Source: Deferribacterales bacterium (lineage in GTDB: Bacteria > Chrysiogenota > Deferribacteres > Deferribacterales > Geovibrionaceae). From it: a stretch of 64,000 bases of DNA. Under the pieces are notes generated by a model. It saw only the letters and a program-made list of their open reading frames with translations, was not told the DNA's origin and did not search any database. The stretch is taken from the NCBI GenBank assembly GCA_050253335.1, contig JBFWJG010000001.1:46153-110152 (forward strand), given 5' to 3'. Numbering within the stretch: position 1 is the stretch's first letter; each line of letters begins with the position of its first letter. Below, piece by piece: positions 7,896 through 48,742 of the stretch. A program made the translations under genes and the position numbers.

Positions 7896-8912
<1,017 letters not shown>

Positions 8913-10447: not shown

Positions 10448-10460
10448 TCATTGAGCAGCC

Positions 10461-10745
10461 TTACTTTCCGCCGCTGACCTTGGTTGATTTCTGATAGTTC
10501 GGAAGCGGTACGTCCTGTCCGTTTCTTTACACGCTCACGCCTTGCAGAGCAAGGCTTCGCTTCGCACGGCGCATTCCCATCCATGGGAGTGTTTACTTTC
10601 CGCCGCTGACCTTGCTTAATTTCTGATAGTTCAGAAACGGTACGTCCTGTCCGTTTCTTCACACGCTCGCGCCTTGCAGAGCAAGGCTTCGCTCCGCACG
10701 GCGCACTCCCATCCATGGGAGTGTTTATTTCCCGCCGCTGACCTT
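10461..10745. repeat. 132-bp tandem repeat (2 full copies plus start of a third; partial copy at ~10196-10232)
   Basis: Units start at 10461, 10593 and 10725; near-identical, with internal palindromes. Confidence 0.9.
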
Positions 10746-11156: not shown

Positions 11157-11230
11157 TGTGTATGAACCTATAAATATTTATACAATTCTACATGAAATTG
11201 TTATAAAATTACAAGACTTCGGAGAAAAAA

Positions 11231-13327: not shown

Positions 13328-13328
13328 G

Positions 13329-14947: not shown

Positions 14948-14962
14948 TATCTATCCCCTGAT

Positions 14963-16228
14963 TTAATCTTTTAAGTCGAAAATAATTTTTACTGCTTCAT
15001 CAAGGCTGTAGCGCTCCTTGCCGGGAGCCAGATCCTTGAGGTTGTTAAGCGGAGTGTGCAGAACCTTGTTCATAAAAGCGCTGAGGAGGTATTCCAGCTT
15101 CCTGCGCTCGCCTGCGTCCGCTACCTTGAACTTGTCGCAGAAGCGGTCAAGCTCAAGCATGCGCTTTTCATCAAAACTTTCACGCAGGGCTTTTATCACA
15201 GGCACAATCTTCATGGATTCCACCCAGCGGTAAAAGTCCGCCACGCCTGTTTCGATGTATTCCATAGCCTTTACGGCCTCTTTCTGGCGGAGTTTTTTGT
15301 TTGATTCCACCACGGCTTTCAGGTCGTCTATGTCGTAAACATATGCGTTTTCGATGTCCGCCACGGCGGGGTCAATGTCTCTGGGTACTGCTATATCTAT
15401 GAAGAACATGGGCTTATGCTTGCGTCTGATCATAACGGGCTTTATGTCTGCCGCTTCGATCATGTAGCCGCTTGCTCCGGTGGAGGAGAGCACTATATCC
15501 GCGTGGGCGAGTTCCTCACGGAACTGATCAAGGGGAACTGCTTTTCCGCCGACTTCCGCCGCGAGTTTTTCCGCCTTTTCGAATGTTCTATTTGTGACCG
15601 TTATCCCTCCGATGTCTGCACCCCGGAGGTGTTTACAGGCTATCTCGCACATTTCGCCCGCGCCTACCACGAGTGCATGCTTATCTTCAAGACTGCCGAA
15701 GATTTTGGAGGCGAGCTCAACAGCGGCTGAACTCACGGAGACGGGATTATCGCCTATGCCTGTATTGGTTCTGACCTTTTTGGTGGTTTTGATAACGAAT
15801 TCTTCCAGCTTGCGGATGAATGTTTTCGCCGCGCCGAACTTTCGGGAGTTCTCGAAAGCGTCCTTCACCTGACCGAAGATCTGCGGTTCGCCCATAACCA
15901 GAGAATCAAGCCCGCCTGCCACACGGAAAATGTGACGCACGGATTCCTCTCCGCAGTGGATATAGGTGTATTTCTGGAGAATACTGCGGTCGATTTTGCA
16001 TTGTTCAGCGATTATTTTGAGAACACTGTCCACGTTACAGAGAAAATCGTCAGTGACTATGTAATATTCCACCCTGTTGCAGGTGGAGATCACCATCGCC
16101 TCGTATATTCTGTCATTCTGGAGGATGTCGCCGTAAAGCTCCTCCAGCACCGCTTCGGCTACTGCCAAAGTTTCCCGCACCTCGACAGGGGCGGTATTAT
16201 GATTAAGTCCTACAACTGCCAACTGCAT
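14963..16228 (-). CDS. hemA: glutamyl-tRNA reductase
   Basis: STCNRVE, GLDSLVMGEPQI, GAGEM, DIAVPRD. Confidence 0.97.
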   Translation of the reverse strand: MQLAVVGLNHNTAPVEVRETLAVAEAVLEELYGDILQNDRIYEAMVISTCNRVEYYIVTDDFLCNVDSVLKIIAEQCKIDRSILQKYTYIHCGEESVRHIFRVAGGLDSLVMGEPQIFGQVKDAFENSRKFGAAKTFIRKLEEFVIKTTKKVRTNTGIGDNPVSVSSAAVELASKIFGSLEDKHALVVGAGEMCEIACKHLRGADIGGITVTNRTFEKAEKLAAEVGGKAVPLDQFREELAHADIVLSSTGASGYMIEAADIKPVMIRRKHKPMFFIDIAVPRDIDPAVADIENAYVYDIDDLKAVVESNKKLRQKEAVKAMEYIETGVADFYRWVESMKIVPVIKALRESFDEKRMLELDRFCDKFKVADAGERRKLEYLLSAFMNKVLHTPLNNLKDLAPGKERYSLDEAVKIIFDLKD

Positions 16229-34416: not shown

Positions 34417-34443
34417 AGGGGAGCCCTTAGGGCTCCCCTTTTT
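34417..34443 (+). terminator. terminator after the MCP gene
   Basis: aggggagccc-tta-gggctccccttttt. Confidence 0.8.
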
Positions 34444-34450
34444 AAAGCCG

Positions 34451-34524
34451 AGCGAGATAATTTTTACTCAATGGTGAGATAATTTTTTCTTGAAGCGGTT
34501 TGATACTGTCAAAAACAGTTTGAA
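34451..34524 (+). repeat. left-end motifs of the Mu-like element
   Basis: gAGATAAtttttactcaatggtgAGATAAttt and tgtcaaaaacagtttga; inverted counterparts at 47820-47920. Confidence 0.65.
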
Positions 34525-34528
34525 ACAC

Positions 34529-34560
34529 GAAAAAGGGCGGGATAAAAACCGCCCTTTTTC
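34529..34560 (-). terminator. terminator of the leftward repressor/cargo operon
   Basis: gaaaaagggcgg...ccgccctttttc. Confidence 0.8.
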
Positions 34561-34562
34561 AT

Positions 34563-35306
34563 TTAAATATTGTTCAAAAGTGTTATTGCGTTTTTGTCAT
34601 TCAAATCATACATTTTTTTCCACTCTGATAGCTGCCTAAAGCTAAGGGAAGGGAAACCTCTCAATATGTGTTCAACATCATATTCAAAATGGGCATATTT
34701 TTCTAAAAGTGCTTCCTGTGATGCCGAAAACATTTTTTCTTTTTTAGTTGCTATTAATGTGGTCATTAAAAGCTCGTTGTAAATCCAAGGAGAATATGTT
34801 GAGTAGTCATTTTCAACAGAGTTATCTGATTCAAGAAAAATAAAAACGGGTGTTTCCGAAATCATTTTAGTTAAAGCTGTAGACAAAATTATATTAATAT
34901 TATCTACACACCTTATTATTTGTTTTTTATTACTCATTGATCCAGTTAGTTCTTTAATCAAATTGTCTTTATATCCCCATACATCTGAATCAATAAATGT
35001 TGTTAAATCTAATTCTTTTGATAGCCAGTTTGAAAAATATTGTACTAAATCAACATCTGCATGGGAATGAGATAAAAAAATATCTGCATTTATTTGCGGA
35101 AACCAATCATTTTCAAGCCTAGCAACGTCAATCGTCTCATTTTTTAGAACATCGACCTTCCCTTTCAAATACTGCAAATATGGGCTATAGCTTCTTGTGC
35201 TTGCTTTTAGCCTTTTATCAAGTATTTCGCTAAATAAAAGATCTAGTCTTTTGGATGGTACAAACCTTTTAATTTCTGCTTCATTAATCTTAAACTTAAG
35301 GAACAT
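34563..35306 (-). CDS. TIR-domain protein (candidate antiphage)
   Basis: DIFLSHSHAD, FIDSDVW and SPWIYNEL (putative catalytic Glu) are TIR-like motifs; very AT-rich. Confidence 0.75.
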   Translation of the reverse strand: MFLKFKINEAEIKRFVPSKRLDLLFSEILDKRLKASTRSYSPYLQYLKGKVDVLKNETIDVARLENDWFPQINADIFLSHSHADVDLVQYFSNWLSKELDLTTFIDSDVWGYKDNLIKELTGSMSNKKQIIRCVDNINIILSTALTKMISETPVFIFLESDNSVENDYSTYSPWIYNELLMTTLIATKKEKMFSASQEALLEKYAHFEYDVEHILRGFPSLSFRQLSEWKKMYDLNDKNAITLLNNI

Positions 35307-35315
35307 GCCTACCTC

Positions 35316-35777
35316 CTATTGAAAATATGTAACAACGAGTGCAACCCCTGTTAAAATGAAATAAAGAGGAGCAACCGACCAAGTGAAAAAATTGTCTAAA
35401 ATGGAGCTTACTTTTTTATATGACATATCTGGCTTTAGATTAAAAAGTGTCCTGTCATCAAATTTACCGTCAAGCATAGCGGTAACAGCTTTATCGTATT
35501 TTGCTGTATAATCTTTTCTCAAAGCAGCATAGAGAGCATTCTGAACACCAAGAAGCACTATAACGACAAGGCATAAGGGAAGCTTCAAATTTGCCTGAAC
35601 AGAGTCATTGCTCAAAGCAATAATAGCTCCAACGATAAGTACACAAAGCATTCTACATTGAGATGAATAAGTAGACATTCTCACTATATTTTGCTGTATA
35701 AATTCAAGATAAGCGATAAATGAAGGTGAATCTGCTGTAGGCTTTTTTGAGCAATCTGAAGAGTCTTTATTTTCCAT
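35316..35777 (-). CDS. 3-TM membrane protein (TIR-associated effector-like)
   Basis: YLEFIQQNIVRMS then hydrophobic helices and a C-terminal WSVAPLY TM. Confidence 0.65.
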   Translation of the reverse strand: MENKDSSDCSKKPTADSPSFIAYLEFIQQNIVRMSTYSSQCRMLCVLIVGAIIALSNDSVQANLKLPLCLVVIVLLGVQNALYAALRKDYTAKYDKAVTAMLDGKFDDRTLFNLKPDMSYKKVSSILDNFFTWSVAPLYFILTGVALVVTYFQ

Positions 35778-35800
35778 TGTATAACCTTCTATGATTTCTT

Positions 35801-36475
35801 CTATTTTATTGACATTACATAGGTATAAAGCTTTTCGAGCTGCTTGAAATTCAGTTCCTTAAGAGATGATATTTCAACGTCCAGTAGCCTTTGAGCTATG
35901 ATGTAAGCATCATTCTTCTTATACCCTTTTTCCTTGAGCCTAACATGGATTGCAACCTGCCAATCTTTCATCACTTGGTTAGAGGTTATGTTGGGGGAGA
36001 TCTTACGCAAACGTGCTATCTGGCTGTTGAGATACTTTTGAATAGTAGGAAAATCGACTTGCTTAAGTTGATTATATTTCGTTACTTTAAATCTTCTGCA
36101 CAAAACCCCATACCACTTTTTATAAAGCCCTTGGCGGGTTTTAGTGTTGTCTGTGTCAAGGTCAACAAGCTCCTCAATCTTTGTGCGGACGGTGAGCTGT
36201 TGGGCAGGTGTTATGTCATCAGGCTGAGGAGCAATGACATGCTTTTCTGTGATCTTGGGGTTTACGTTCGTGATGAACTGGTTGTTGCTTCCTGCTATCT
36301 GGACGTTATTGTTGCCTTCAATGGATTGGCTTACGTTGGTCCGGGAACTGACCTGAAGGTTGCCGTCACCTTTAACCTTTTGAGAGGCTCTGCTTGTGTT
36401 TCCCAAAGGTTTCTTTCTTTTCTTAGCTTCTTTGAACAAGTCTATAATTTTGCCTTTTGTATCTTTGTCAGACAT
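35801..36475 (-). CDS. protein with N-terminal Q/N/G repeat motif and ORF6C-like DNA-binding region
   Basis: SQKVKGDGNLQV..SQSIEGNNNVQIAG; WYGVLCRRFKVTKYNQLKQVDF resembles ORF6C. Confidence 0.6.
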   Translation of the reverse strand: MSDKDTKGKIIDLFKEAKKRKKPLGNTSRASQKVKGDGNLQVSSRTNVSQSIEGNNNVQIAGSNNQFITNVNPKITEKHVIAPQPDDITPAQQLTVRTKIEELVDLDTDNTKTRQGLYKKWYGVLCRRFKVTKYNQLKQVDFPTIQKYLNSQIARLRKISPNITSNQVMKDWQVAIHVRLKEKGYKKNDAYIIAQRLLDVEISSLKELNFKQLEKLYTYVMSIK

Positions 36476-36497
36476 AATCAGCCTCTAAAATTATTCT

Positions 36498-36956
36498 TTA
36501 GTCTTCCATGAGGTTGTCAAATTTATATTTTTTTATACCTGCTTCAACAATACTAAATTCATCTTTCAATTTATTGTTCATCAGTACATAGTTATTTTGA
36601 AGTCTTGCAAAAATGCAATATGCTATGATTATTACAATTAATGAATGTATGGGGCTGAAAATATATGAAACTACGATAACCGATAAAAGAGTAATAATTA
36701 ACAATACAAACTTGTTCCATTCAAAATTGTCCACGTTTTTCTTGCTTTCTGCATTAAGTCTGTTAATTTCAGCATTAATCTTTTCAGGACTAATACGAGA
36801 TTTATTATTAGTAATGTTGAAATACTGGGTAAGGTCTCCTGACAGTTGTATGTTTCCACTGCCTTTAATATATTGACTTCCCGCCTCATGTGACTTGTAT
36901 TGTTGATTTTCATCACCGATAATTTTTTGAGATATTTTGTCATCTTTATCAGCCAT
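36498..36956 (-). CDS. 2-TM membrane protein with the same N-terminal Q/N/G motif
   Basis: SQKIIGDENQQY..SQYIKGSGNIQLSG followed by two hydrophobic helices. Confidence 0.65.
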   Translation of the reverse strand: MADKDDKISQKIIGDENQQYKSHEAGSQYIKGSGNIQLSGDLTQYFNITNNKSRISPEKINAEINRLNAESKKNVDNFEWNKFVLLIITLLSVIVVSYIFSPIHSLIVIIIAYCIFARLQNNYVLMNNKLKDEFSIVEAGIKKYKFDNLMED

Positions 36957-36964
36957 ACACACAC

Positions 36965-37390
36965 CTACGAAGCAAGGCTTATCAAATTGCGTATTTTATC
37001 TTTGTCTATAGTTGATTTCTCACTATTCATTGCGTCCTGAAGCAGGAGCATTACTAGCTTACTTTTCTTATCAGGCTTCATATAGAGGTCATTTTTATCC
37101 AATATTTCTTCAACTGTCTCAATAATCACTCTGAGCTTGTTTTCGATATTTTGGAAACCATTTGCTACTGTCTTGTACTCTTCTTTTGTATTTCCATTGA
37201 TAATCCAATTTAAATCTTGGTCATGGCATACTGAGAATATTTTCTCATAATCAAGAGAATTTCTTTTTTTCCATGTTGAAACCGTATTGGGCTTGATTTC
37301 AAGTAGTTGAGCAAGCTCCACATCACTGTGTAACCCTTTTACTTTTTTCAAACGCTCAATAACTAAAGTGGCATTTTGCGATTTTTCCAT
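36965..37390 (-). CDS. phage CI-like HTH repressor
   Basis: IERLK...SDVELAQLLEIKPNTVSTWKKRNS...DLNWIING; divergent from the ner-like gene. Confidence 0.85.
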   Translation of the reverse strand: MEKSQNATLVIERLKKVKGLHSDVELAQLLEIKPNTVSTWKKRNSLDYEKIFSVCHDQDLNWIINGNTKEEYKTVANGFQNIENKLRVIIETVEEILDKNDLYMKPDKKSKLVMLLLQDAMNSEKSTIDKDKIRNLISLAS

Positions 37391-37419
37391 TTGACACATT
37401 CTCAATTTGCGATTATTAT
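37391..37419 (+). promoter_or_regulatory. sigma70 early promoter of the element with candidate operator
   Basis: TTGACA-17-TATTAT; tttgcgatt occurs twice nearby. Confidence 0.7.
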
Positions 37420-37452
37420 AACGTATTAAAACAGTTTAGCACGAGGTCAACG

Positions 37453-37716
37453 ATGACACAATATGAAATCAAAACGGTTTTGACAGAGGAGATTAAACGG
37501 AAACTGCTTGAGAAGGGGCATTCCATATCGTCTTGGGCAAGGCTGAAAGGGTACAGGGTTCAGAACGTCATCACCTACATTGACCGCTATTCATCAAAAC
37601 CTCAACTGCCTCAAAGTCCAAAGATATATGAAATTTTACTTAACATTCGCAAAAGTACGGGTGTTGACCTCACAACAGGAAGAATACACAGCATGAGTAT
37701 AAGAAAAAGTACATAA
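37453..37716 (+). CDS. Ner/Cro-like DNA-binding protein
   Basis: EIKRKLLEKGHSISSWARLKGY, Ner-like HTH; position opposite the repressor. Confidence 0.7.
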   Translation: MTQYEIKTVLTEEIKRKLLEKGHSISSWARLKGYRVQNVITYIDRYSSKPQLPQSPKIYEILLNIRKSTGVDLTTGRIHSMSIRKST

Positions 37717-37733
37717 GACCTCCTTTGGTTTTG

Positions 37734-37777
37734 CCCTCCGTGTGTTTTCAGTGCTTCAAGCACGGAGGGATTTTTTT
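37734..37777 (+). terminator. terminator after the ner-like gene
   Basis: ccctccgtg...cacggaggg-a-T7. Confidence 0.65.
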
Positions 37778-37813
37778 CACCACTGGAGAAATAACAATAA
37801 CGGAGGAAACAGA

Positions 37814-38050
37814 ATGACAGCGGAACAGGCAAGAGAACGGGTAAACGGAGTTATCAGGCTGTTGGACGGGCTAACAGTAAAGGAAGCTAACCAAGTGCTT
37901 GATTCCGTAAGAAGGCAGACACAGGAAGCCATTATAAGACCGCTGGAAGACGGCATGAATTTGGCTGTTCCCCCCCAAAGAGACAGTTTCATCACTTCGC
38001 TTGAGGCTTTGGTTGAACGGCATACTAAAGGCAGTCCTGCCTCTATTTAA
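37814..38050 (+). CDS. hypothetical phage protein
   Basis: GGAGG RBS before MTAEQARER. Confidence 0.55.
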   Translation: MTAEQARERVNGVIRLLDGLTVKEANQVLDSVRRQTQEAIIRPLEDGMNLAVPPQRDSFITSLEALVERHTKGSPASI

Positions 38051-38061
38051 GGCTTTGTAAG

Positions 38062-38304
38062 GTGGTTATTTTGGAAACTGGATTGAAAGAGACGCTTGTT
38101 AGAGAACTAAGTGCAGCAAACCCTGAATATACACCTAAGGACGTTATCACCGCCTTAAAGGGTAACAGGGAATGCGCCTTTCTGACGGCGTGTGAGTTTG
38201 CGGACTTGGTTCTGGAAATATTTGAAGAAAGCAGCTTGGCGAAGATGTTTTACAGCATGAGAGAGCTTAAGAGGAGCGGGGGAGAAAAAATCCTCCCCCT
38301 TTAG
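38062..38304 (+). CDS. hypothetical phage protein
   Basis: ORF in the early operon, same strand as neighbours. Confidence 0.4.
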   Translation: MVILETGLKETLVRELSAANPEYTPKDVITALKGNRECAFLTACEFADLVLEIFEESSLAKMFYSMRELKRSGGEKILPL

Positions 38305-38462
38305 CCAAGCGATAAGCACCTTAGAACGCTCTGCCCCAACGCTTCCCAAGAATGCTTACAAGGCTTATGCCAGTTTGATCAGGTGACATGGGTAACGTAC
38401 AGGCGAATATGCACAAATACACAGGTAACACAGCTTAGGAATTAACGTCAAAAGAGGTTGAA

Positions 38463-38750
38463 ATGGCAAACAATATACAGAAGTTCGCAAAACTTGTTGA
38501 TACAGAGGAGTACGGTCAAGTCCTTCTGATGACTCTTTATAACGATGAGGCAGAACAATATGAGCTTAGATTTATGGTTAATTCAGGCAATCTCACTATT
38601 CAGGAATTACGTTGGGGCTTTCTTCCACATGCAACATTAGAAGATATATACGACTACTTGATGGATTTTCCTGTTGAGGGAATTGTTGAGGCTATTGGCA
38701 TGATGATAGAGAGAGCACCTGAAGCATGGATTCAGACGAGGGAGATATAA
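38463..38750 (+). CDS. hypothetical phage protein
   Basis: GAGG RBS, acidic 95-aa ORF. Confidence 0.6.
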   Translation: MANNIQKFAKLVDTEEYGQVLLMTLYNDEAEQYELRFMVNSGNLTIQELRWGFLPHATLEDIYDYLMDFPVEGIVEAIGMMIERAPEAWIQTREI

Positions 38751-38751
38751 G

Positions 38752-39276
38752 GTGCAAGGTACAGGTTTTAAATTAGATACGAGCGAGCTTGAAGATCTTT
38801 TCAAGGATCTGTTAGCGAAAATTGCAAATCCTAAACCTGCATTGCGTGATATAGGCGAAGCTCTTGTCTCTAGCACAGTCGAACGTCTGTATGATGGTGT
38901 CACACCTGAGGGGAAAAAGCAAACACCCGTTAAAAATCGTCCTGGTGAAACACCCCTATTGGATTCGACAGACTACTCAAGAGGCTTCAAATATGCAGTA
39001 GGTAAAGATTGGGTTGTTGTTGGCACGAATAAGCCGCAAGCCCGTCTGCTGCACAAAGGCGGTGTGCTTGAACCCAAAGTAATCAAATCCAAAGTAGGCA
39101 AAGACGGTAAGCGTAAGCCTTTAGCTTTTACCATAGGCGGTAAAAAAGTCTTTGCCCATAGTGTAAAAATTCCTGCGGTCACAATACCCGCTAGACCGCA
39201 CATAGGCATAAGTGAAGATGATAAGGAAGAGATAGCCTATCTTATAAGGCTTTACTTATCAGGAGCAGCAAAATGA
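38752..39276 (+). CDS. phage virion morphogenesis protein (Mu gpG / P2 gpS family)
   Basis: P.L..IGE.L..ST..R, VVVGTNKPQARLLHKGG, IPARPHIGISEDD. Confidence 0.85.
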   Translation: MQGTGFKLDTSELEDLFKDLLAKIANPKPALRDIGEALVSSTVERLYDGVTPEGKKQTPVKNRPGETPLLDSTDYSRGFKYAVGKDWVVVGTNKPQARLLHKGGVLEPKVIKSKVGKDGKRKPLAFTIGGKKVFAHSVKIPAVTIPARPHIGISEDDKEEIAYLIRLYLSGAAK

Positions 39277-39437
39277 TAAAAATTTATTTAACAGTATTTT
39301 TCGGAACGGTGCTTCTTATGAATGTCTTTAACGGGATTCAACTTATGAATCAGAAACCTAACATCATTATAACGGCAATATCTACAGGCATGACAATAGC
39401 CCTTTGTATGTTGTTGCTGGCTGCTTTGTGGAAATGA
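39273..39437 (+). CDS. 54-aa two-TM protein (not in ORF track)
   Basis: ATGA overlap with the upstream stop; MIKIYLTVFFGTVLLMNVF...ALCMLLLAALWK*. Confidence 0.55.
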   Translation: MIKIYLTVFFGTVLLMNVFNGIQLMNQKPNIIITAISTGMTIALCMLLLAALWK

Positions 39438-39446
39438 GGGGGATAT

Positions 39447-39743
39447 ATGGCTGAAAAAACATACAAGCCCATAGCGGCTGGGTTAAAGATACTCAAAGCT
39501 TTAGACATTATCGCAATGAGTTCCGAGCCTGTGACGGTGAAGCGGATAACGGAAATGACCGAAGAACCATACGGAACGACCATGACGCACATAGCCACGC
39601 TTGAACAGGCTGGCTACATAGAGCGTGTGGGTGACGGATACGCTATCACCCTGAAGCTCGGTACGTTCTGGGCAAAGAAAAAGGCAAGCCTTCAAGGGGT
39701 AATAACCCGCACACAGGCGGAACTAAGGGAAATAGGAGCATAG
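39447..39743 (+). CDS. IclR-type HTH protein of Mu-like phages
   Basis: AGLKILKAL...TVKRI...YGTT..HIATLEQAGYIER...YAI. Confidence 0.75.
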   Translation: MAEKTYKPIAAGLKILKALDIIAMSSEPVTVKRITEMTEEPYGTTMTHIATLEQAGYIERVGDGYAITLKLGTFWAKKKASLQGVITRTQAELREIGA

Positions 39744-39746
39744 GTT

Positions 39747-40745
39747 ATGAAGCGTGATATTGAATACGAACAGGCACAGCTTGAGGCGGCTGATGACATA
39801 GCAGAGATGGAGCTTGCCAAGGTTCAGCAGGTGAAATCAGAGCAACCGCATAATCAGCAGGAAAGAGAGGCGTTGATTGCGGAAGCGTACAGGCTGACAG
39901 GTAGAATTGAAGCATTTTCGACTTTTGCAAAATTTGCCGATGTCGGCACTTTGATTATGCTTAAACAAATCAAAGACAACAAGATTTATAAAGATATGCC
40001 AAGTCTTGGTACATGGGAAAATTATTGTCAATCAATAGGAATGTCAAGGAGCAAAGTAGATGAAGACCTCAAAAACCTTGAAATGTTTGGCGAAGCTTTT
40101 TTAGCCGACATCGGCAGTTTTGGACTTGGCTATCGTGAACTTCGCAAGCTCCGCTCCGCCGCTTCGGAAGGAACACTTTCCATAACCGACAATTCTATCA
40201 CTATCGAAGTGATAGACGGCGAAACAACCAAGCAGGAGACCATACCGTTGAACGACAAGGACGAGCTGAAGGAAGCCCTTGAGCGTATCATCACCGCCAA
40301 AGATGAAGCTCTTGCCGCTAAAGACCGTGAGCTGAAGGCGCAGGAAAAGCTAACAGAGTTCAACAAAAACGAGTGGGATAAAAGCGAAAAACAACTTCTT
40401 ACAGCCACAAAAGAGCTTAATAAGCTGACTGGCAAGGGTGTTATAAACGGCGTACCTTCTGATGATTACCCCATCTTCTCAAGGCTTTCAAGCGTTGCTT
40501 CGGACATAACGGGCATTTATGCAGAGCTGAAGCAGATTCATGCGGAAACGCTTTCTGACAACAACACCCAGTATCTCCACGGAACAATCATGTACATGGT
40601 TCAACTTGCCAGTGAGCTTTCATTCCTTGTGCCTGCGGGCATAGGAGACATGGAGGCAACGCCCGATGAAATTGACGAGATAGCAGACGGTTTACCTCTC
40701 CCCGGCATACGCAACCTGCCTAATTACGGAAAGGCTGAAAGGTAA
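39747..40745 (+). CDS. DUF3102-like protein preceding the Mu-like transposase
   Basis: LKQIKDNKIY..TWENYC..IGMSRSKVDEDLKNL..FGEAFL..GLGYRELRKLR. Confidence 0.65.
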   Translation: MKRDIEYEQAQLEAADDIAEMELAKVQQVKSEQPHNQQEREALIAEAYRLTGRIEAFSTFAKFADVGTLIMLKQIKDNKIYKDMPSLGTWENYCQSIGMSRSKVDEDLKNLEMFGEAFLADIGSFGLGYRELRKLRSAASEGTLSITDNSITIEVIDGETTKQETIPLNDKDELKEALERIITAKDEALAAKDRELKAQEKLTEFNKNEWDKSEKQLLTATKELNKLTGKGVINGVPSDDYPIFSRLSSVASDITGIYAELKQIHAETLSDNNTQYLHGTIMYMVQLASELSFLVPAGIGDMEATPDEIDEIADGLPLPGIRNLPNYGKAER

Positions 40746-40749
40746 GCAT

Positions 40750-42531
40750 ATGTCACCTGAAGCTCTGAATCACATAAAAACCTCTCTTGAGACCTGCGAA
40801 ACGCCTAAGGAACGCACCATCGAAGCCGCAAGGTTGAGTGAGTTCTACGGTATTTCTACCGCTTCATTTTGGAGATGGGCAAACAAGGCGGGTTTTCGGG
40901 TGCGTTCGGCACGCTCCGACAGGGGTAAAAGCGAGCTGACAGATGACGAGTTGAAGCTTATAGCCGCTAGAGTGCTTGTGGGCAAGCAGTTAAGGAACAA
41001 GTTTACCAACTCCGTTAAAAACGCCCTTGAGGAGCTTGCAAGAGAGGGGTTCACCTTCCCTGTGGGGTATGAACGTATATGCTCACTGCTTCGTGAAAAG
41101 GGGTACGACAAGGAGAGCTTGGCGACTATTCCGCCCCATGTAAGGCTTATCTCAAAGCACCCGAACGAGACATGGCAGTTTGATGTTACCAACTGCTTAC
41201 AGTGGCATTTGGACAAGAAAACAGGGCTTACAGAGCGTGATTTGGAGATGAATTTCTACAGCAACAAGGCTGTGAAGTTTCTTAAAACCATCAAAAGGGA
41301 GCTTCTCCGCTTCGTTATGGTTGACCATTGCACGGGTGCTTTTTTCTTCTGGTATTACTATGTTCCCGGCGAACGTGCAGAGGAAGGGGCGGACTTCTTT
41401 TATAAGGCTTTTGCTAGGAAAGACAGCCTCATACAGACCTATCTGAACTCTGAAACAGGCATGTACCAGATGCACGGAGTACCTTTCAGGCTTGTTTCCG
41501 ACAAGGGGTCAATCCTTAGGCATAAGTCTATTATCAACCTTATGGACGCTCTTGATGTGAAGATTGAGCTTCATGCCGCAGGCAACCCAAGGGCAAAAGG
41601 CAAGGTTGAACGCCTTATGCGCACCATAGGCACTAAGTTTGAAACAATCCTGAAAGTACGCCGACCTGTAGACCTTGCCGAGCTGAACCGATGGGCATTG
41701 GCATGGTGCATTAACCATAATCAGACCTTCGTGAGCAAAAAGAAGGAGCTTCCTGCCGCTGAATACTGGCTGAAGATAAGGCAGACAGAACTTAGGCTTT
41801 GCCCTCCCGAAGAGCTTTTTAAGACCCTTATACACAGGGCGGATTATGAAAGAACGGTTGACGGCAGTGGGCATATATCATTCCACGGACGGGAGTATTT
41901 TATCAAAGATGTCAACGCCGTACGCAAGAAGGTTAAGGTCACTATCAATGCCTATGAATACCCACTGATTGATATTCATTTTGACGGGCATGTATGGAAG
42001 ACCGCCCCTATAGGAACAGACGAATACGACAGGCTGATAAGCCCTGCAAACGTTGAATACGGCACTTACAGGGCATTACCCCATACCATCACGCAAAAGC
42101 ATATCAGCGAGCTTGAACAGGTGGCTATAGACAACTTTGGAGTCGGTTTTAAGGGTAATAAGCAGAAACGCCAGTCCATAGCCCCAGAACGAGGCAAAGA
42201 GAAGATTAAACCTATGGATAAGGTCATTCAGCCTGAGAAGGTTCACCATCTTCAGAAACAGGGCATTGAGCTTGTAACGCCTGATATCCATGCACCTTTG
42301 ACGGAAAAAGAGGAAAGGCACTACACCGTTACGCTTCTGTTTGACACTGGTGAAAAACGCCTTAGCACAACCGACTTGATACTCCGTATTGTTCGGGAGG
42401 TTCGTAAGCTCTCGGTTGAGGAAAATAAAGCGATAAAAGCACGTTGGAAGAACGGAGTAACAGCCACAGAGGCAGACCAAATTATACAGAACATGCTGGA
42501 GGTGACACATGCCGAGAGTAATTACAGCTAA
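40750..42531 (+). CDS. Mu-like DDE transposase
   Basis: PNETWQFD, VDHCTG, VSDKGS, GNPRAKGKVER integrase-core motifs. Confidence 0.9.
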   Translation: MSPEALNHIKTSLETCETPKERTIEAARLSEFYGISTASFWRWANKAGFRVRSARSDRGKSELTDDELKLIAARVLVGKQLRNKFTNSVKNALEELAREGFTFPVGYERICSLLREKGYDKESLATIPPHVRLISKHPNETWQFDVTNCLQWHLDKKTGLTERDLEMNFYSNKAVKFLKTIKRELLRFVMVDHCTGAFFFWYYYVPGERAEEGADFFYKAFARKDSLIQTYLNSETGMYQMHGVPFRLVSDKGSILRHKSIINLMDALDVKIELHAAGNPRAKGKVERLMRTIGTKFETILKVRRPVDLAELNRWALAWCINHNQTFVSKKKELPAAEYWLKIRQTELRLCPPEELFKTLIHRADYERTVDGSGHISFHGREYFIKDVNAVRKKVKVTINAYEYPLIDIHFDGHVWKTAPIGTDEYDRLISPANVEYGTYRALPHTITQKHISELEQVAIDNFGVGFKGNKQKRQSIAPERGKEKIKPMDKVIQPEKVHHLQKQGIELVTPDIHAPLTEKEERHYTVTLLFDTGEKRLSTTDLILRIVREVRKLSVEENKAIKARWKNGVTATEADQIIQNMLEVTHAESNYS

Positions 42532-43714
42532 TGCACGGGAAATCAACCTAAAACGGATAATACAGGCTGCACGTATGACGCAGGAAGGTTTCCGTACCAT
42601 GTTGGCAGAGGAAGCGCAGATAGATATAGCGCAGTCAAGCTTCAAGCTGCTTCTGCAAAAAGGGATTATCCCTAAATGGATAGATAAGAAGCAGGTTGAA
42701 GGCTTTGTCATGACAAGGCTGCCTTTCGTTATGCAGTCACAGGAACTGACAGCCCCGCAGATATGGGATTATGCGGAGCAGGAACAGGGTAAAAGGTTCG
42801 TGTTTGAAGCAAGCGAAGACGATTATGCCAAAAAGTTAAAAACATACATGGAGATTACTATGCTTAGATTGGATACAATGAGGCATTTCAAACTGGCTCA
42901 GAACCCTTTCATTTTGGATATACGCAGAGAGAGCGAGATATTCATGGGTTCATCTCATCAATTCGCCTTTGAAGTGATGAAACAGACGGCGGAAACAGGC
43001 GGGTTTGCCGTTATCACGGGTGAAGTCGGAGCGGGTAAATCAACCGTTCGCCGCAAGTTTTTTGAGGACTCAAGGCAGAATAAGATTTGCCAGATTATTT
43101 ACCCTGAATCAATCGACAAATCACGTTTGACTGCTAAGGACGTTCTGTATTCCATCATCTACGACCTGACCGAAGCCAAGCCGCAGGGCAATAAAGAAGC
43201 CCTAAGCAGGCAGGCAAAGGCACTGCTGCTTGCCAGAAGCAACAACAATGAGCGTACGGTTCTGGTTATCGAAGAGGCTCACGACCTGCCTGTTACCACC
43301 TTGAAGTTTCTTAAGCGCATATGGGAGCTTGAAAACGGTTTACAGAGGCTTTTAGGCATTATTCTCATAGGTCAGAATGAGCTTGAGACAAGGCTTTACG
43401 GACGAAACAGTACGGAGATAAGGGAAGTGACCGCAAGAACCGCTCATGCAAGGGTTGAAGCTCTCGGCAAGGAAATGCCTTCTTACATAGCTCACAAGTT
43501 CAAATGCGCTAAGGCAGATGTGAACAGGATTATTTCACCTGAAGCACTTAAGCTTTTGGTTGACTGTATGAAGATAACCGACCGTATGGGCAAAGAAAAA
43601 TCAATGGGGTATCCGCTCTTTGTGAGCAATGTGATGATAAGGCTTATGAACTACGCAGCAGAAGCGGGGGAAGAGCTTATAACCCCTGAAATAATAGAGA
43701 CGGTAGGAGTTTAG
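42509..43714 (+). CDS. MuB/ExeA-like AAA ATPase with N-terminal extension
   Basis: NPF, GEVGAGKST, VIEEAH, ILIGQNEL. Confidence 0.9.
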   Translation: MPRVITANAREINLKRIIQAARMTQEGFRTMLAEEAQIDIAQSSFKLLLQKGIIPKWIDKKQVEGFVMTRLPFVMQSQELTAPQIWDYAEQEQGKRFVFEASEDDYAKKLKTYMEITMLRLDTMRHFKLAQNPFILDIRRESEIFMGSSHQFAFEVMKQTAETGGFAVITGEVGAGKSTVRRKFFEDSRQNKICQIIYPESIDKSRLTAKDVLYSIIYDLTEAKPQGNKEALSRQAKALLLARSNNNERTVLVIEEAHDLPVTTLKFLKRIWELENGLQRLLGIILIGQNELETRLYGRNSTEIREVTARTAHARVEALGKEMPSYIAHKFKCAKADVNRIISPEALKLLVDCMKITDRMGKEKSMGYPLFVSNVMIRLMNYAAEAGEELITPEIIETVGV

Positions 43715-43715
43715 C

Positions 43716-44081
43716 ATGGAAAGAGTAGGCATATTTATTATCAGGTATGACGGGCGTTTTATGGTTATGCCTGACGGTACGGGAACGTTAAGAGGCTTTT
43801 TAGAAGAAGGGGAGACCCCAACCGATGCGGCAGTCAGAGTTTTGGCGAACTCTGCCCCATGCGGCTACACAGGCTCTCCCGTGTTTGTTATATCCGAAAA
43901 AACAGAGGTTGCGAAGGATTATCTGTTTGCCGTCCGTGCGGCAAAGCATGACGGCAGATTTTTGAGCCACAAAGAACCTACGGATATGGTTCAGTGCTTA
44001 GCTTGGACTTCTCTGCGTCAGGCTGAAAAGAAAGAAAAATATGTAAAGAAACAAATAGCTGATAAGGCGGTGAACTCATGA
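43716..44081 (+). CDS. hypothetical protein with degenerate Nudix-like box
   Basis: GFLEEGETPTDAAVRVL lacks the REUxEE glutamates. Confidence 0.5.
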   Translation: MERVGIFIIRYDGRFMVMPDGTGTLRGFLEEGETPTDAAVRVLANSAPCGYTGSPVFVISEKTEVAKDYLFAVRAAKHDGRFLSHKEPTDMVQCLAWTSLRQAEKKEKYVKKQIADKAVNS

Positions 44082-44284
44082 GCTACACACATAACATGAC
44101 AAACGCAGAACGGCTTAGAGAGCTGGCTAAACTAAGCAGCACGGTTGGTGAGTTTCAGGACAAAGCCATATCGGGCGTAATGCTGAAAATGACTTTATCA
44201 GAGTTTGAAACAGAGCTGGAAACCATGAAGGTAGGGGATCTGCACGACTACTTTGAAAAGGTCAAAAACGGAGATGGAAAATGA
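44078..44284 (+). CDS. hypothetical phage protein
   Basis: Coupled ATGA overlaps at both ends. Confidence 0.55.
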   Translation: MSYTHNMTNAERLRELAKLSSTVGEFQDKAISGVMLKMTLSEFETELETMKVGDLHDYFEKVKNGDGK

Positions 44285-44766
44285 CCATACAAAACTGGAA
44301 CGATGTTGATAAGGCACTCCGCCTTATCGGTGAAAAAGAAATAGCACTGGCAAATATAGACGGCGATATGACGCTTAAAATAAACGCTGTGAAAGAGGAC
44401 GCAAAACAAGCAGCCGAAACCATAGCCATAGAGAAAAAGGAGCTTGAAAAGGCTGTAGAGGGCTTTTGTGAGGCGAATAAGGCTGAGTTTGCCCTTAAAC
44501 GCAGCAAAGAACTTACTTTCGGTGAGATAGGTTACAGGCTGGTTAAGTCCGTATCCATTCCAAGAGTTAAAACTAAGCTTGAATCACTCATAAAGAGCTT
44601 AAAGGTTTTCGGGCTTTCCGACTGCATTACATACACCGAAGCAGTGGACAAGGACAAGCTTACGGAATTGAAAGATGAAGACCTTGTAAAGCTCGGTTTA
44701 AAGCGCACCGTCAAGGATTCGTTCCGTATCAAAACCAACATTGAGAAGGTTAAGGAAGTCGGTTGA
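44281..44766 (+). CDS. gam: Mu Gam-like host-nuclease inhibitor
   Basis: WNDVDKALRLIG...FCEANK...KELTFGEIGYR...VDKDKL. Confidence 0.85.
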   Translation: MTIQNWNDVDKALRLIGEKEIALANIDGDMTLKINAVKEDAKQAAETIAIEKKELEKAVEGFCEANKAEFALKRSKELTFGEIGYRLVKSVSIPRVKTKLESLIKSLKVFGLSDCITYTEAVDKDKLTELKDEDLVKLGLKRTVKDSFRIKTNIEKVKEVG

Positions 44767-44797
44767 ACCCCAAGTACCAATTTAGCAGGAGATAGCT

Positions 44798-45085
44798 ATG
44801 AACACGAAAAGTCAGACGGTTTTCAATCAAAGCTTCCAAGAGGTTGTAGAGGTTGTGGGTATGGAAGGGGCGATAAAGCTTTGTGAAGTCTTTGGTGGGC
44901 TTGAAATATACATTCCAAAAATGGACTACCTAAAACGCTTGGAGAGGAACAGAGCTATAGTTGACGCTTATGACGGTACTCAAGCTTCTATTGCCCTGCT
45001 TGCTAAAGAATACCAGCTTTCTTCAAACCAAATCAGAGTGATTTTGAGAGGAAGGAAGACACGAAATAAGGAGATTGAAGCATGA
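44798..45085 (+). CDS. mor: Mor/C family transcription activator
   Basis: GAIKLCEVFGGLEIYIPK...RNRAI...LAKEYQLSSNQIRVIL. Confidence 0.88.
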   Translation: MNTKSQTVFNQSFQEVVEVVGMEGAIKLCEVFGGLEIYIPKMDYLKRLERNRAIVDAYDGTQASIALLAKEYQLSSNQIRVILRGRKTRNKEIEA

Positions 45086-45600
45086 GCAATAGGAAATATT
45101 ACACTCTTACGGGAGAAAGTCTTAAAAAGGTTAAAGTATTTGTTGATGAGCTTCAGGCAGTCTTTAAGAAAAGGAATGAGTACATGAAAATAAACAATTT
45201 CGCAGGACTCACGCATGGCGGTGGAGTTGTTAGCGGAGTGATTTTGAAGGAACAATCTGACGATAAAAAGTGGCGAAAAAGAAAAAAGGCTTCGCAGTAC
45301 GGATACGCTCATTACCCATCAAACACAAAAGAAGGCAAAAAGATTTCAGGTGAGCTAAGCAGACTTAGAGGAAAGGATATGATGGCTTTCAGCGATGAAT
45401 TTAACCTGCCTTTAGCGTTTACAATGGAAGGCTTATACACATCGGCAGTTCATCTTGTAGGCGAAAACATTATTTTGACTGTTCCAGAGCCAGAAGAAAT
45501 TAAGCCTGAACACCCTTTTTTCAAAGACGCTACCCTGCTTAAGCTAAGCGAGTATTACGCACTCAAAGAGCAGGTGCTAGAAGCCGAAACGCCCCGCTAG
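45082..45600 (+). CDS. hypothetical phage protein
   Basis: Coupled to mor; YPSNTKEGKKI; its 3' end overlaps a hammerhead ribozyme. Confidence 0.65.
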   Translation: MSNRKYYTLTGESLKKVKVFVDELQAVFKKRNEYMKINNFAGLTHGGGVVSGVILKEQSDDKKWRKRKKASQYGYAHYPSNTKEGKKISGELSRLRGKDMMAFSDEFNLPLAFTMEGLYTSAVHLVGENIILTVPEPEEIKPEHPFFKDATLLKLSEYYALKEQVLEAETPR

Positions 45601-45645
45601 GGGTGTCTGGTGGGAGTAACCGCCCATCACTGACGAGGCAGGTTA
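45583..45645 (+). ncRNA. type II hammerhead ribozyme #1
   Basis: gcc-GAAAC-gcccc(gcta)ggggt-GTC^-tggtggg(agtaaccg)cccatca-CTGACGA-ggc; loop taacc can pair with ggtta at 45641-45645. Confidence 0.88.
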
Positions 45646-45656
45646 AGGAGTTATCC

Positions 45657-45818
45657 ATGTGGAAATATATTGTTGGCTGGTTCATCGTGAACACTGTTTT
45701 TGCTATCTACGAAGAAATCGTATATGGCAAAGCTTTCGTACATATTTTTGACATTCTTAATGTGCTTTTTTGGGGTGGTTTGTATCTCCTTGAACTTTTC
45801 GGAGGAGCATATGAATAG
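45657..45818 (+). CDS. small two-TM protein
   Basis: AAGGAG RBS, MWKYIVGWFIV... Confidence 0.55.
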   Translation: MWKYIVGWFIVNTVFAIYEEIVYGKAFVHIFDILNVLFWGGLYLLELFGGAYE

Positions 45819-46371
45819 GGTAACGGCAAAGCAGGTTCAGCTGATTCATATAGCCAAAAAGCAGCTTGAAATATGCGATGACGATTACCGCAGTATTTTG
45901 AATGAATACTTCAAAGTTAGGAGTTCTAAAGACCTTACGGAACGTCAGGCTGAAAGACTGATTACTCATTTCAGGCAAAAAGGTTTCCGTATAAACACCG
46001 CCAAGAAAGCCAAGCCTACAGGCTCTACTATTATCGCTTTCCCTACATCATTTCAGCTTGAGCTTATAGAGGTTTTAAAAAGCAATATCGTATGGAAAGC
46101 AGGATTTGAGGGGTTTCAGCTTTGGCTTGAAAAGCGAATGAGGATTAAGAAAATTCGCACAAAGCAAGAGGCGGCAAAAGTCATTGAAGGCTTGAAAGCC
46201 ATGCTTGGGATTGATGCCGAGATAATCAAAATGAAATCGCTGCCTTTCCCTATATGCCTTGATGAAGCCTACTTTATAGATAACTTCACGGGTGAGGTTC
46301 TGCCCTTCAGGTGGGTTTATGACATTGAAAAAAGAAAGCTTATCAGAATTGAAAACTCTATATGGAGATAA
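45811..46371 (+). CDS. gemA: GemA / Mu gp16 (DUF1018) regulatory protein
   Basis: QLIHIAKKQL..DDDYRSIL...SSKDLT..QA..LI..F..GF; KVIEGLKAM. Confidence 0.85.
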   Translation: MNRVTAKQVQLIHIAKKQLEICDDDYRSILNEYFKVRSSKDLTERQAERLITHFRQKGFRINTAKKAKPTGSTIIAFPTSFQLELIEVLKSNIVWKAGFEGFQLWLEKRMRIKKIRTKQEAAKVIEGLKAMLGIDAEIIKMKSLPFPICLDEAYFIDNFTGEVLPFRWVYDIEKRKLIRIENSIWR

Positions 46372-46373
46372 AT

Positions 46374-46562
46374 ATGAGAATAACTTGTACTGCACAGATT
46401 CGCCCTTACTGCTTTTTTGGAACGGGGAAGTGCTGCCTTGCTTGTCCGTTAAACCAGAAGTGCCGCGAAGAAAATAAAAAGAAAGGTTGTAAGCTTATAC
46501 CTTGCGGTGATGAACACGCCGAATCTTTAAAAGAGTGTGGATTCTGCTCCATTGAGAAGTAA
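46374..46562 (+). CDS. small Cys-rich protein (10 Cys)
   Basis: GGAG RBS; MRITCTAQIRPYC...CCLAC...CGFC. Confidence 0.5.
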   Translation: MRITCTAQIRPYCFFGTGKCCLACPLNQKCREENKKKGCKLIPCGDEHAESLKECGFCSIEK

Positions 46563-46601
46563 GTGAAGATCTTAACAAAATTATATAAAAAGGAGATTAA
46601 A

Positions 46602-47069
46602 ATGAAAAACTGGGAAGACGTTTCAGCCGGAATAAGCAGGCTGACCGCAATTAAGCACGAAAAAAAGCAATTAAAAATCACAGCCGGAAGAGTGGCGGAC
46701 AGTGTTATTAACGAACTTGTCAAAAGAAGAGACGATGAAATCAACGCAATCAGAATGAAGTACGCTGAACTTATTCCGCAGGAACAGGCAAAAACGATAA
46801 AAGAGATCTCTTCCAAAAAAGACAAGCTCAATGAAGAAGCTTTTGAGCTTGAAGAATCTATAAAAGATTACGTGCTTCAAAGCAAGGAAACAAAGGAGAT
46901 AAAAGAGCTAATCGAACAGCCATACAAAAGAGATGACAATTCACCGTATGAGTTTAATAAGACCTTCAGAGAGGGGAGTATATACTATCGGAACAACCTT
47001 CCTTTCACCATACCTCCGTCATATTCAAGAAGTGAAGAGATTCAGATTATATTGAATTGTGATAGGTGA
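46602..47069 (+). CDS. second, divergent Gam-like coiled-coil protein
   Basis: MKNWEDVSAGISRL resembles Gam IQNWNDVDKALRL; KTFREGSIYYR resembles KELTFGEIGYR. Confidence 0.55.
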   Translation: MKNWEDVSAGISRLTAIKHEKKQLKITAGRVADSVINELVKRRDDEINAIRMKYAELIPQEQAKTIKEISSKKDKLNEEAFELEESIKDYVLQSKETKEIKELIEQPYKRDDNSPYEFNKTFREGSIYYRNNLPFTIPPSYSRSEEIQIILNCDR

Positions 47070-47073
47070 ATCA

Positions 47074-47676
47074 ATGGCTTGGGATAAAATAGCACGAACA
47101 GGCTCTTTTACTGATATGAACGGAAATACATACACCTTCACCGATGATATTCTCAAACGTTTGGTGCGTTCTTTCAAAACTGGTTCAGAAAAAGTACCCC
47201 TTGTCTTAGGTCACCCTGAAACAGACTATCCTGCACATGGTTGGATAAAAGATTTAAGAGTAAATAACGGCTTTCTTGAAGCTCAATATGAAAACCTCTC
47301 TGAAGAGTTGAAAAGACTCGTACAGGAAGGACGGTTTAAATATAAAAGTATCTCCGTTAATGGCGGTCTGACCAAGTTGAAGCACTTAGGCATACTAGGT
47401 GCGGTTGCACCTGCTATGAGCGGCTTAGGGAGCATTCAGTTTAATAAATATGATAACGGCATTGTGATGTACTTTGCTGAAAAGGTCATGGAGGGAAATA
47501 TGACATTAGAAGAATTAGGTAAAATGGTTGAGCAACAGCAAGACGAAATCGAAAAATGCAGAAGGGACATTGACGCACTTATGAAGGCAATCGCCGCAGG
47601 CGGTACTTCATCGTCTAGCTTCGCAAGTTCCAGTCACTACGGTGTATCAGGGCAGAAAATGGCAAGTAAGCTTTAA
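47074..47676 (+). CDS. Mu-like prohead protease (gpI-like) with short C-terminal scaffold
   Basis: IARTG.FTD, PLVLGHP..PAHGWI, GRFKYKSIS, LKHLGILGAVAPAM.GL. Confidence 0.85.
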   Translation: MAWDKIARTGSFTDMNGNTYTFTDDILKRLVRSFKTGSEKVPLVLGHPETDYPAHGWIKDLRVNNGFLEAQYENLSEELKRLVQEGRFKYKSISVNGGLTKLKHLGILGAVAPAMSGLGSIQFNKYDNGIVMYFAEKVMEGNMTLEELGKMVEQQQDEIEKCRRDIDALMKAIAAGGTSSSSFASSSHYGVSGQKMASKL

Positions 47677-47681
47677 CCTGA

Positions 47682-47735
47682 AGCCGAAACAGGGGAAAGC
47701 CCCCTGTCTGCAACTAAGCTTGTACTGATGAGGCT
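47682..47735 (+). ncRNA. type II hammerhead ribozyme #2
   Basis: agcc-GAAAC-agggg(aaagc)cccct-GTC^-tgcaa(ctaagc)ttgta-CTGATGA-ggct. Confidence 0.88.
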
Positions 47736-47819
47736 GCGGTAAAAAATTTAAAAACGACCCGCAAAAAATTACAAAAAACACACATCTTCAAAAAATTCAA
47801 AAAAAATCCTGAAAACCAA

Positions 47820-47920
47820 TCAAAACAGTTTTGACATTTAACACAAAAGGAGCGGAGTGTAAGACACCTGTTAAGAGATTTTTCTAAATTATCTCATCAT
47901 TAGCGGGTTCTTATCTTACA
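47820..47920 (-). repeat. right-end motifs of the Mu-like element
   Basis: Reverse complement reads TGTAAGATAAgaacccgctaatgatgAGATAAttt...tgtcaaaactgttttga. Confidence 0.7.
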
Positions 47921-47941
47921 CCCCGTCACCTTTTTGTTTGT

Positions 47942-48742
47942 TTATTTTACAGAAAAGCCCACTACGGCTTCGGGGGTGATCACTCTGAATGTGAATGATT
48001 CCGTAAGGAACAGGTGCACCTTTTCGGAATCGTGGTTGTGGTAGCCAACTGCAAAATCCTGCCCTATTGTGAGTTCAAGGTCGCCTTCCCTGTCAGCGAC
48101 GAGGAGAGCACCGTCAACCGCTTCCGAATAGACAACGGAACCTTTGATCTGCTGTTTGATCAGGTCTCCCAGTGTTCCGCCGGGGAAGAGCCGTGCGAGG
48201 TATTTCCACAGAGCGGGATTGACAACGAGATTTGCGCCGCCTGTAATCCCTTCCTTCATCATGCGTGTCTGAGCTTCGCTCACAGCGTCCACTATGCTGT
48301 CCTTGTCCAGAGTCATTGCAATTTTTGACTTGGCAGTAAGCTGGTTCAAGCCCACAATGCCGCTGTCCTTAAAACCGTTGAAAACAGCATTTTCCTCGAA
48401 TGCAGCAAGCTTTCTGGCCGCTTCGGTGAGGGGCTCCAGCTCAAGGTCTTTTGCGCCTCTGTCTATGTTGTCCAGCTCCCATATATCAAGGGAGAAATTG
48501 ACTCTCGCCTCAACAAGAGGAAGTATTTTGTGTACACCGAAGCATACCTCTCCTGCTTTCTGCTTAGCGGGCAGAGCAAGGCGCCCGAGGCTGACTGAAG
48601 TGTAATCTATGCCGTAAGGGCCTTCAACATCCGCAAACTTTCTGGCTGAAAGGTTAGCGGACAGGGTTTCTTTAGCGAGTGTGTTTATTTCTTTCCATGC
48701 TGCTGCGCTTATCGGTGCGAAATCTTTTCTGAGCAGATTCAT
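47942..48742 (-). CDS. family 1 encapsulin shell (Linocin M18-like)
   Basis: MNLLRKDFAPIS..AW, SARKFADVEGPYG, ELDNIDRGA, LTIGQDFAVGY, ESFTFRV. Confidence 0.95.
   Translation of the reverse strand: MNLLRKDFAPISAAAWKEINTLAKETLSANLSARKFADVEGPYGIDYTSVSLGRLALPAKQKAGEVCFGVHKILPLVEARVNFSLDIWELDNIDRGAKDLELEPLTEAARKLAAFEENAVFNGFKDSGIVGLNQLTAKSKIAMTLDKDSIVDAVSEAQTRMMKEGITGGANLVVNPALWKYLARLFPGGTLGDLIKQQIKGSVVYSEAVDGALLVADREGDLELTIGQDFAVGYHNHDSEKVHLFLTESFTFRVITPEAVVGFSVK

Follow-up and report, generated by a model that had tools for sequence, protein, structure and literature searches.

A Mu-like transposable element of 13.5 kb carries, immediately behind its final gene and at positions 47682–47735 (+ strand) of the window (the whole 64,000-nt stretch of DNA analysed here), what is, judged by its sequence, a genuine type II hammerhead ribozyme. 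This ribozyme, HH2, was recognised by sequence reading, a descriptor, a covariance model (R1) and its minimum free energy (MFE) fold, and it adds one example to a pattern that has been in print since 2011. With moderate confidence, we propose that HH2 is a working, short-form ribozyme that cuts a long rightward transcript and leaves linear mRNAs with hairpin-capped ends; that cleavage takes place, that one long transcript is made and that stability is affected are what we infer here.

Structure of HH2 and its recognition by search models

By direct reading, stem II of HH2 pairs AGCC (47682–47685) with GGCU (47732–47735) over 4 bp; the core is made up of GAAA (47686–47689) and CUGAUGA (47725–47731), with every conserved base intact; stem III runs for 7 bp from A47689–U47707 through G47695–C47701 and is closed by the loop AAAGC; and stem I, short and A+U-rich, joins UGCAA (47709–47713) to UUGUA (47720–47724) in 5 bp under the loop CUAAGC. 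The cleavage-site base C17 corresponds to C47708, and the cut is predicted to fall after it. All elements of the type II core are in place (CUGANGA, GAAA, the A15.1–U16.1 pair as A47689–U47707, and a non-G cleavage-site base), together with three helices of 4, 7 and 5 bp (II, III and I, respectively), of which I and III are loop-closed and II is open, i.e. the permuted type II hammerhead in a short form.

Our own loose descriptor (at least 3 pairs in stem II, at least 4 in stem III and at least 4 in stem I; core GAAA / U-H / CUGANGA) matched twice in the window, and the identical two matches were the only ones in the whole genome (2.58 Mb, 142 contigs, both strands): HH2 and a first hammerhead, HH1, matched at 45583–45639. 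On 20 block-shuffled copies of the genome, the same descriptor gave 0 matches. The MFE fold of the HH2 54-mer is the hammerhead three-way junction, which is retained in a 101-nt context, where ACC/GGU can lengthen stem II across a small internal loop. Folding-energy z-scores are weak (−1.5 for the 54-mer and −0.7 in the 101-nt context), so that support for HH2 comes from the motif and not from the energy. Loop I is complementary to the 3′ tail over at most 4 nt and to the 5′ flank over at most 5 nt, which is no more than other loci show as background, and a search for a loop I/3′-tail pseudoknot in HH2 gave no match above that background; since no convincing tertiary contact was found, cleavage could be slow. 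The preliminary description had presented this site as a second hammerhead, which core, stems, descriptor, shuffled genomes and R1 all bear out, and its drawing of the fold is reproduced here.

HH1 (45582–45647, +; cut predicted after C45607) has, by sequence reading, a clear 5-bp pseudoknot between loop I and the 3′ tail (UAACC/GGUUA), and this tail reaches into AAGGAG, the Shine–Dalgarno sequence that precedes the following ORF. The two ribozymes have the core and GCC/GGC alone in common and are unlike each other in stems I and III and in their loops. The earlier reading of these different, still paired stems as covariation is the weaker for comparing two separate ribozymes and not orthologues.

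An Rfam cmscan of the window reported HH1 alone, as Hammerhead_II (RF02276, 52.8 bits). No hammerhead family matched 47550–47850 at E ≤ 10, and HH2 was absent from the 4 matches that a whole-genome Rfam search returned at E ≤ 10; it fails the RF02276 gathering score and goes unreported even at this permissive threshold. In the Rfam consensus, stem I is 9 bp long and loop I pairs with the 3′ tail; in HH2, stem I has 5 bp and stem II 4 bp. HH2 shares with the type II hammerheads of RF02276 the core, the permutation and the location in prophage intergenic spacers on the coding strand (PMC3088659, partial text), and differs from them in its 4-bp stem II, its 5-bp stem I with a 6-nt loop, and the lack of a clear loop I/3′-tail pseudoknot. 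According to the available part of PMC3088659, this pseudoknot is present in most type II hammerheads and is not obligatory.

Because HH2 is shorter in stems I and II than the Rfam consensus, natural short-form ribozymes were sought. IMG/VR was scanned with the pattern GCCGAAAC...GTC...CUGANGAGGC (the core plus GCC/GGC, taken from the window's own ribozymes), which yielded at least 134 loci, many of them with several hammerheads and one viral contig (L051–L053) carrying as many as 9 in ~5 kb. From the IMG/VR loci listed, the descriptor extracted 80 distinct ribozymes, with a stem II of 3 bp in 37 and of 4–5 bp in 43; 23 of the 80 were 50–59 nt long with 4 bp or more in stem II. All of these except L042:3729-3786 and the second, near-duplicate copy in L051 (21/23) entered the training alignment of R1, a covariance model of phage type II hammerheads with a stem II of 4–5 bp and a hand-written structure. 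On the window, R1 scored HH2 at 43.6 bits (E = 8e−12) and HH1 at 39.8, the next match being 10.9; HH2 and HH1 were the sole matches in the whole genome at E ≤ 1, and across the phylum the model gave 4 matches in 3 of 68 genomes. Because the training pattern came from the window's own ribozymes, about 20 of the 54 positions of HH2 fit R1 by construction; the model is partly circular (core, part of stem II), yet its specificity is real.

It is extremely improbable that HH2 is a chance match or an inactive look-alike. Such a reading would agree with its absence from the Rfam results, the short, A+U-rich stem I and an energy z-score of only −1.5, but it is at odds with the contrast between no matches in any of the shuffled genomes and two real ones, both in one 2.1-kb operon stretch, and with the R1 score of a sequence whose core bases are all intact.

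Many short-form hammerheads in the viral contigs (L025–L158) have a 7-bp stem I with a conserved G-U-N-A-N-G-C-like top and are without a 3′-tail pseudoknot. One short-form member, HH2, was tested against RF02276 and went unreported. The curated Rfam type II model thus passes over a short form common in phage contigs, as judged from HH2, the Rfam-tested member.

The Mu-like element, its transcript and its surroundings

The element occupies 34442–47928 (+) and was recognised by its gene content (repressor, transposase A, B, Gam, Mor and GemA), a target duplication and the similarity of its right end to that of another element. The 5-bp duplication CCTTT stands at 34437–34441 and 47929–47933, and excision of the element in silico restores a hairpin with a T-run behind a chemotaxis-receptor gene. 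The right end (47818–47928, +), which terminates in ...CCCCGTCA, is ~90% like that of a second element on contig C9, and 47928 is the point where this similarity stops; contigs from other metagenomes match up to 47928–47931 and then continue as unrelated DNA. It is this right terminus together with the CCTTT duplication that sets the span of the element, which looks mobile because the DNA beyond its right end is a different one in other metagenomes. From the end of HH2 to the right terminus there are 193 nt with no ORF among them; the first 82 of these, up to the shared right-end sequence, belong to this element alone.

Leftward, a CI-like repressor is encoded at 36965–37405 (−; family matches). 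A promoter-like site at 37391–37419 (+), TTGACA-17-TATTAT (11/12; a consensus match only), precedes the first rightward gene and is the likely start of the transcript cut by both ribozymes. From 37453 to 47676, all genes lie on the + strand with short gaps. Family matches identify a tail-completion-like gene (38752–39276), transposase A (40750–42531), the AAA+ B protein (42509–43714), Gam (44281–44766) and Mor (44798–45085), after which follows orf172 (45082–45600; no family found), whose TAG stop at 45598–45600 lies within HH1. Behind HH1 come, in this order, orf53 (45657–45818; small and hydrophobic, no family), a GemA-like gene (45811–46371; Pfam GemA 3.7e−15, phrog_286; start taken from the beginning of the family match), orf66 (46362–46562; cysteine-rich, no family), orf168 (46563–47069; no family) and the 'protease' gene (47059–47676), all on the + strand. 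The product of the last gene has 205 aa, or 200 aa if started at the ATG at 47074; its first ~146–150 aa resemble the head maturation protease/scaffold family phrog_976, and its C-terminus is coiled-coil-like. Terminase, portal, capsid and tail genes were not found within 34442–47928, where only the tail-completion-like and protease/scaffold-like genes are kept. The element could be a helper-phage-dependent, satellite-like mini-Mu or a deletion derivative.

No terminator-like site was detected on the + strand between 43091 and 48100, in agreement with the earlier remark that none follows the last gene, and the simplest reading would be a single long rightward transcript, cut at 45607/45608 and 47708/47709. 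From the sequence and from hammerhead chemistry, the RNA between the two predicted cuts, both on the + strand, would span 45608–47708 (2101 nt) and hold five ORFs, with orf53 as the first, which matches the ~2.1 kb given in the preliminary description. This RNA would begin, with a 5′-OH, at the stem I hairpin of HH1, behind which come the pseudoknot tail, AAGGAG and the ATG at 45657, and would finish in HH2's stem III hairpin, carrying a 2′,3′-cyclic phosphate. HH2 had also been placed right after the protease gene, and it indeed starts 6 nt past the stop codon (47674–47676) of this phrog_976-like gene. The label of a late mRNA does not suit the block: it carries GemA and small ORFs, the element has no virion genes, and the block looks like the last part of the early operon.

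To the right of the element, the host DNA carries an encapsulin operon, a cytochrome gene and ATP-synthase genes. We give next to no credence to the earlier suggestion that HH2 serves to limit antisense read-through into the convergent encapsulin gene. The genes do converge with no terminator between them, but the encapsulin gene is host DNA outside an element that ends at 47928 with its CCTTT duplication, and in other samples the element sits at other sites. As the right end joins other DNA in other metagenomes, the convergence is an accident of insertion. Self-cleavage does not halt RNA polymerase, and the antisense RNA would therefore still be made.

Several further features of the element and its borders were observed. 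A two-way terminator shared by the convergent chemotaxis-receptor and encapsulin genes was apparently split by the insertion (34418–34441 and 47929–47945), and encapsulin transcripts may now run on into the right end of the element, where they would be antisense to HH2 and to the gene of the protease-like protein. The palindrome TCAAAAC-N-GTTTTGA(CA) occurs in its exact form just twice in the genome, at 37469–37485 by the early promoter and at 47820–47836 in the right end, with a near copy in the left end at ~34519–34535; these are probably repressor or transposase binding sites, as in Mu. The leftmost gene (34563–35306, −) matches phrog_33368 and, weakly, TIR_2 (E = 0.0045, below the cut-off), and may be a cargo or defence gene. 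Depth gaps in metagenome contigs, such as that of X2 at 47362–47845, are assembly breaks without meaning.

Hammerheads in related elements and phages

A copy of HH2 was found on X5 (record 27), a 195-nt contig from a compost metagenome that covers 47656–47744 with 6 substitutions and 1 deletion, the latter (47700) in the stem III loop. The flanks of X5 fall below the 80% threshold, and the HH2 copy is thus better conserved than its surroundings; by eye, the loose upstream end of the contig resembles a diverged copy of the end of the protease-like gene. On this alignment, the X5 copy is a case of conservation of HH2 and not of covariation, its substitutions being known as counts. In a search of 5.8 billion proteins, the protease-like protein itself showed one close homologue, 60% identical and encoded on a contig of 1239 nt, and as both share the full C-terminus the gene is not truncated. 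As a single query, the protein found no relative in the genome-contig and viral-contig collections. The DNA of 45050–47800 had no match in the phage collection, and among 61 related genomes it matched short pieces only, plus a 73% GemA match on contig C9.

The idea that homologous elements might keep both ribozymes found no support in the nearest relatives. Among the 9 Mu-like loci nearest by transposase (35–42% identity; one viral contig and eight genome contigs, most of them Mucispirillum or Deferribacteraceae MAGs), none had a hammerhead by descriptor or Rfam. The second element of the same genome (contig C9, 45800–52835), with a transposase 75% identical and the order Gam–GemA–Mor–right end, likewise had no hammerhead by descriptor. 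An association of hammerheads with genes of the protease family was tried and rejected, with 0 hammerheads within 3.5 kb in the best 80 of 551 phage loci. Taken together, these three counts indicate that HH2 is not a conserved requirement. When the at least 134 IMG/VR hammerhead loci were compared with the element's proteins (tblastn, E ≤ 1e−4), no shared protein was found.

Elsewhere, hammerheads are present in comparable positions. In a genome of the same family (G006, L170 ~8170–15450), a type II hammerhead with 63.6 bits lies between ORFs of 90 and 84 aa, in an order in which GemA precedes it and an HNH gene and Mor follow; the upstream stop is inside the ribozyme and the next start ~20 nt behind it. 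The metagenome loci L173 and L174 represent a Mu-like element with transposase, B, two small ORFs and a 524-aa fusion gene (L173 4302–5876; L174 24–1598) that joins a phrog_976-like N-terminal domain to a Phage_cap_E major capsid domain; here, a type II hammerhead starts 2 nt behind the stop of the fusion gene and is followed by an HTH gene. Three type II hammerheads stand upstream of a likely transposase gene on the viral contig L185, which alone among the 10 loci of a further set has weak Gam and Mor matches. By their sequences, then, hammerheads recur in the early regions of Mu-like elements. In the third hammerhead-bearing genome of the phylum (G002), the hammerhead is within the head module of a lambdoid prophage.

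The Mu-like elements of C9 and L170 both end within ~150 nt after Mor, without late genes, and their right ends resemble that in the window (...CTTATC..ACA..CCCGTCA). Two by-products of this analysis, the short form missed by Rfam and a family of Mu-like elements without virion genes, may outweigh the ribozyme itself.

Transcript processing and other possible fates

In the proposed course of events, HH2 would fold as the RNA is made and cut behind C47708, a position 32 nt beyond the stop codon of the final ORF. The message upstream of the cut would then end in the 7-bp, G+C-rich hairpin of stem III with a 2′,3′-cyclic phosphate, a new 3′ end that resembles a terminator hairpin and should slow 3′ exonucleases, and the cut would separate the message from the element's right end and the host DNA beyond. 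Cleavage by both ribozymes would release a linear 2.1-kb mRNA of five ORFs with a hairpin at both ends, which may have a stability and a translation unlike those of the 8 kb upstream with transposase, B, Gam and Mor. The last message would in this manner get a fixed, hairpin-capped 3′ end whatever lies beyond the insertion. In RiboJ, an engineered 5′ ribozyme insulator, self-cleavage makes the mRNA end independent of the neighbouring sequence; the likeness is an analogy only, as HH2 would act at the 3′ end and in a natural element.

Published cases point the same way. Hammerheads flank genes or short gene blocks in prophages and cleave both in vitro and in E. coli, and the authors proposed for clustered prophage hammerheads that long transcripts are processed into operon-length mRNAs (PMC3088659, partial text). 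HH1 and HH2 are like these clustered hammerheads in lying on the same, coding strand and bracketing a short gene block, here five ORFs, inside a prophage-like (Mu-like) element; HH2 differs from those described in the available part of that paper in that no gene or other feature separates it from the terminus of a transposable element. The processing of polycistronic transcripts has likewise been suggested as a role of hammerheads (PMC6765202, partial text). In D. vulgaris, three type II hammerheads near phage-like genes (loc 1-3, two of them close together) cleave in vivo and in vitro, as given in the accessible part of Olzog et al. 2021 (PMC8782182); organism and sequence are different, and cleavage is shown there and predicted here.

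Unlike HH1 and the hammerheads of the relatives, HH2 has no ORF behind it, and this brings in the main rival to transcript processing. HH2 may be a leftover that in an ancestral, full-length Mu-like phage stood between the protease/scaffold gene and a next cistron, e.g. that of a capsid, with the sequence behind it lost in the deletion that produced the 13.5-kb element; it may still cut, now serving nothing in particular. We regard this as unlikely, though clearly worth weighing. A Shine–Dalgarno sequence and a start codon ~10–30 nt behind the ribozyme are found with the hammerheads HH1, G006 and L173 and are missing behind HH2, the element keeps two morphogenesis-like genes while lacking virion genes, and the 82 nt that separate HH2 from the shared right-end sequence are its own. 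Against a leftover stand the intact core, the better conservation of the X5 copy than of its flanks, and the full length of the protease-like gene relative to its one close homologue. Nor was such an ancestral state found, as no hammerhead lies behind the gene in the best 80 of 551 phage loci of the protease family.

A different fate for the bracketed RNA would be circularisation, by the host RtcB ligase or by a hammerhead that the 5′ half of HH2 and the 3′ half of HH1 would together restore; we consider this very unlikely. Stems I and III of type II hammerheads are self-contained hairpins, so the excised ends would need only stem II to form a full ribozyme; from the sequence reading, GCC of HH2 matches GGC of HH1, the ends of the excised RNA would be chemically right for ligation, and an RtcB homologue is encoded in the genome. 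Against this, a GCC/GGC stem II is the norm of the family and was fixed by our search pattern, the Rfam consensus being similarly short there; Perreault et al. sought circular or spliced products of clustered prophage hammerheads and, in the available part of the paper, report none detected (PMC3088659); and HH1 and HH2 are not repeats of one unit. DNA contigs contained no joint of 47708 to 45608, as expected for an event at the RNA level. It seems extremely unlikely that a rebuilt hammerhead (stem II strand and stem III from HH2; stem I, core and stem II strand from HH1), or RtcB in its place, would close a translatable circular mRNA; if true, a bacterial mobile element would here be producing a circular mRNA that codes for proteins.

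The comparison with viroid-like RNAs and retrozymes is instructive in this respect. Two cuts likewise leave them with a 5′-OH and a 2′,3′-cyclic phosphate that a ligase can join, and their units are flanked by repeats of a single ribozyme, mostly non-coding and replicated as circles (PMC6765202, partial text). The present locus, in contrast, is part of a DNA element, and its two ribozymes, which differ from each other, enclose an mRNA of 2.1 kb with five ORFs; the repetition of one ribozyme that characterises hammerhead-bounded circular RNAs is absent from HH1 and HH2.

As far as the available text of PMC6765202 goes, what bacterial and phage hammerheads, of which there are thousands, do biologically has yet to be settled. 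With a ribozyme at the very 3′ end of an operon, varied insertion sites and no gene or terminator behind, this locus is a clean case for the question whether such ribozymes act as makers of 3′ ends or as insulators from context.

Stop codons and ribozymes overlap at two of the loci. The stop codon of orf172 (45598–45600) falls in the stem III loop of HH1, and in the G006 relative (L170 ~9721–9723) the stop of the upstream ORF overlaps stem II of the ribozyme. A terminating ribosome would cover part of the ribozyme in such an arrangement, which hints at a coupling of translation and cleavage.
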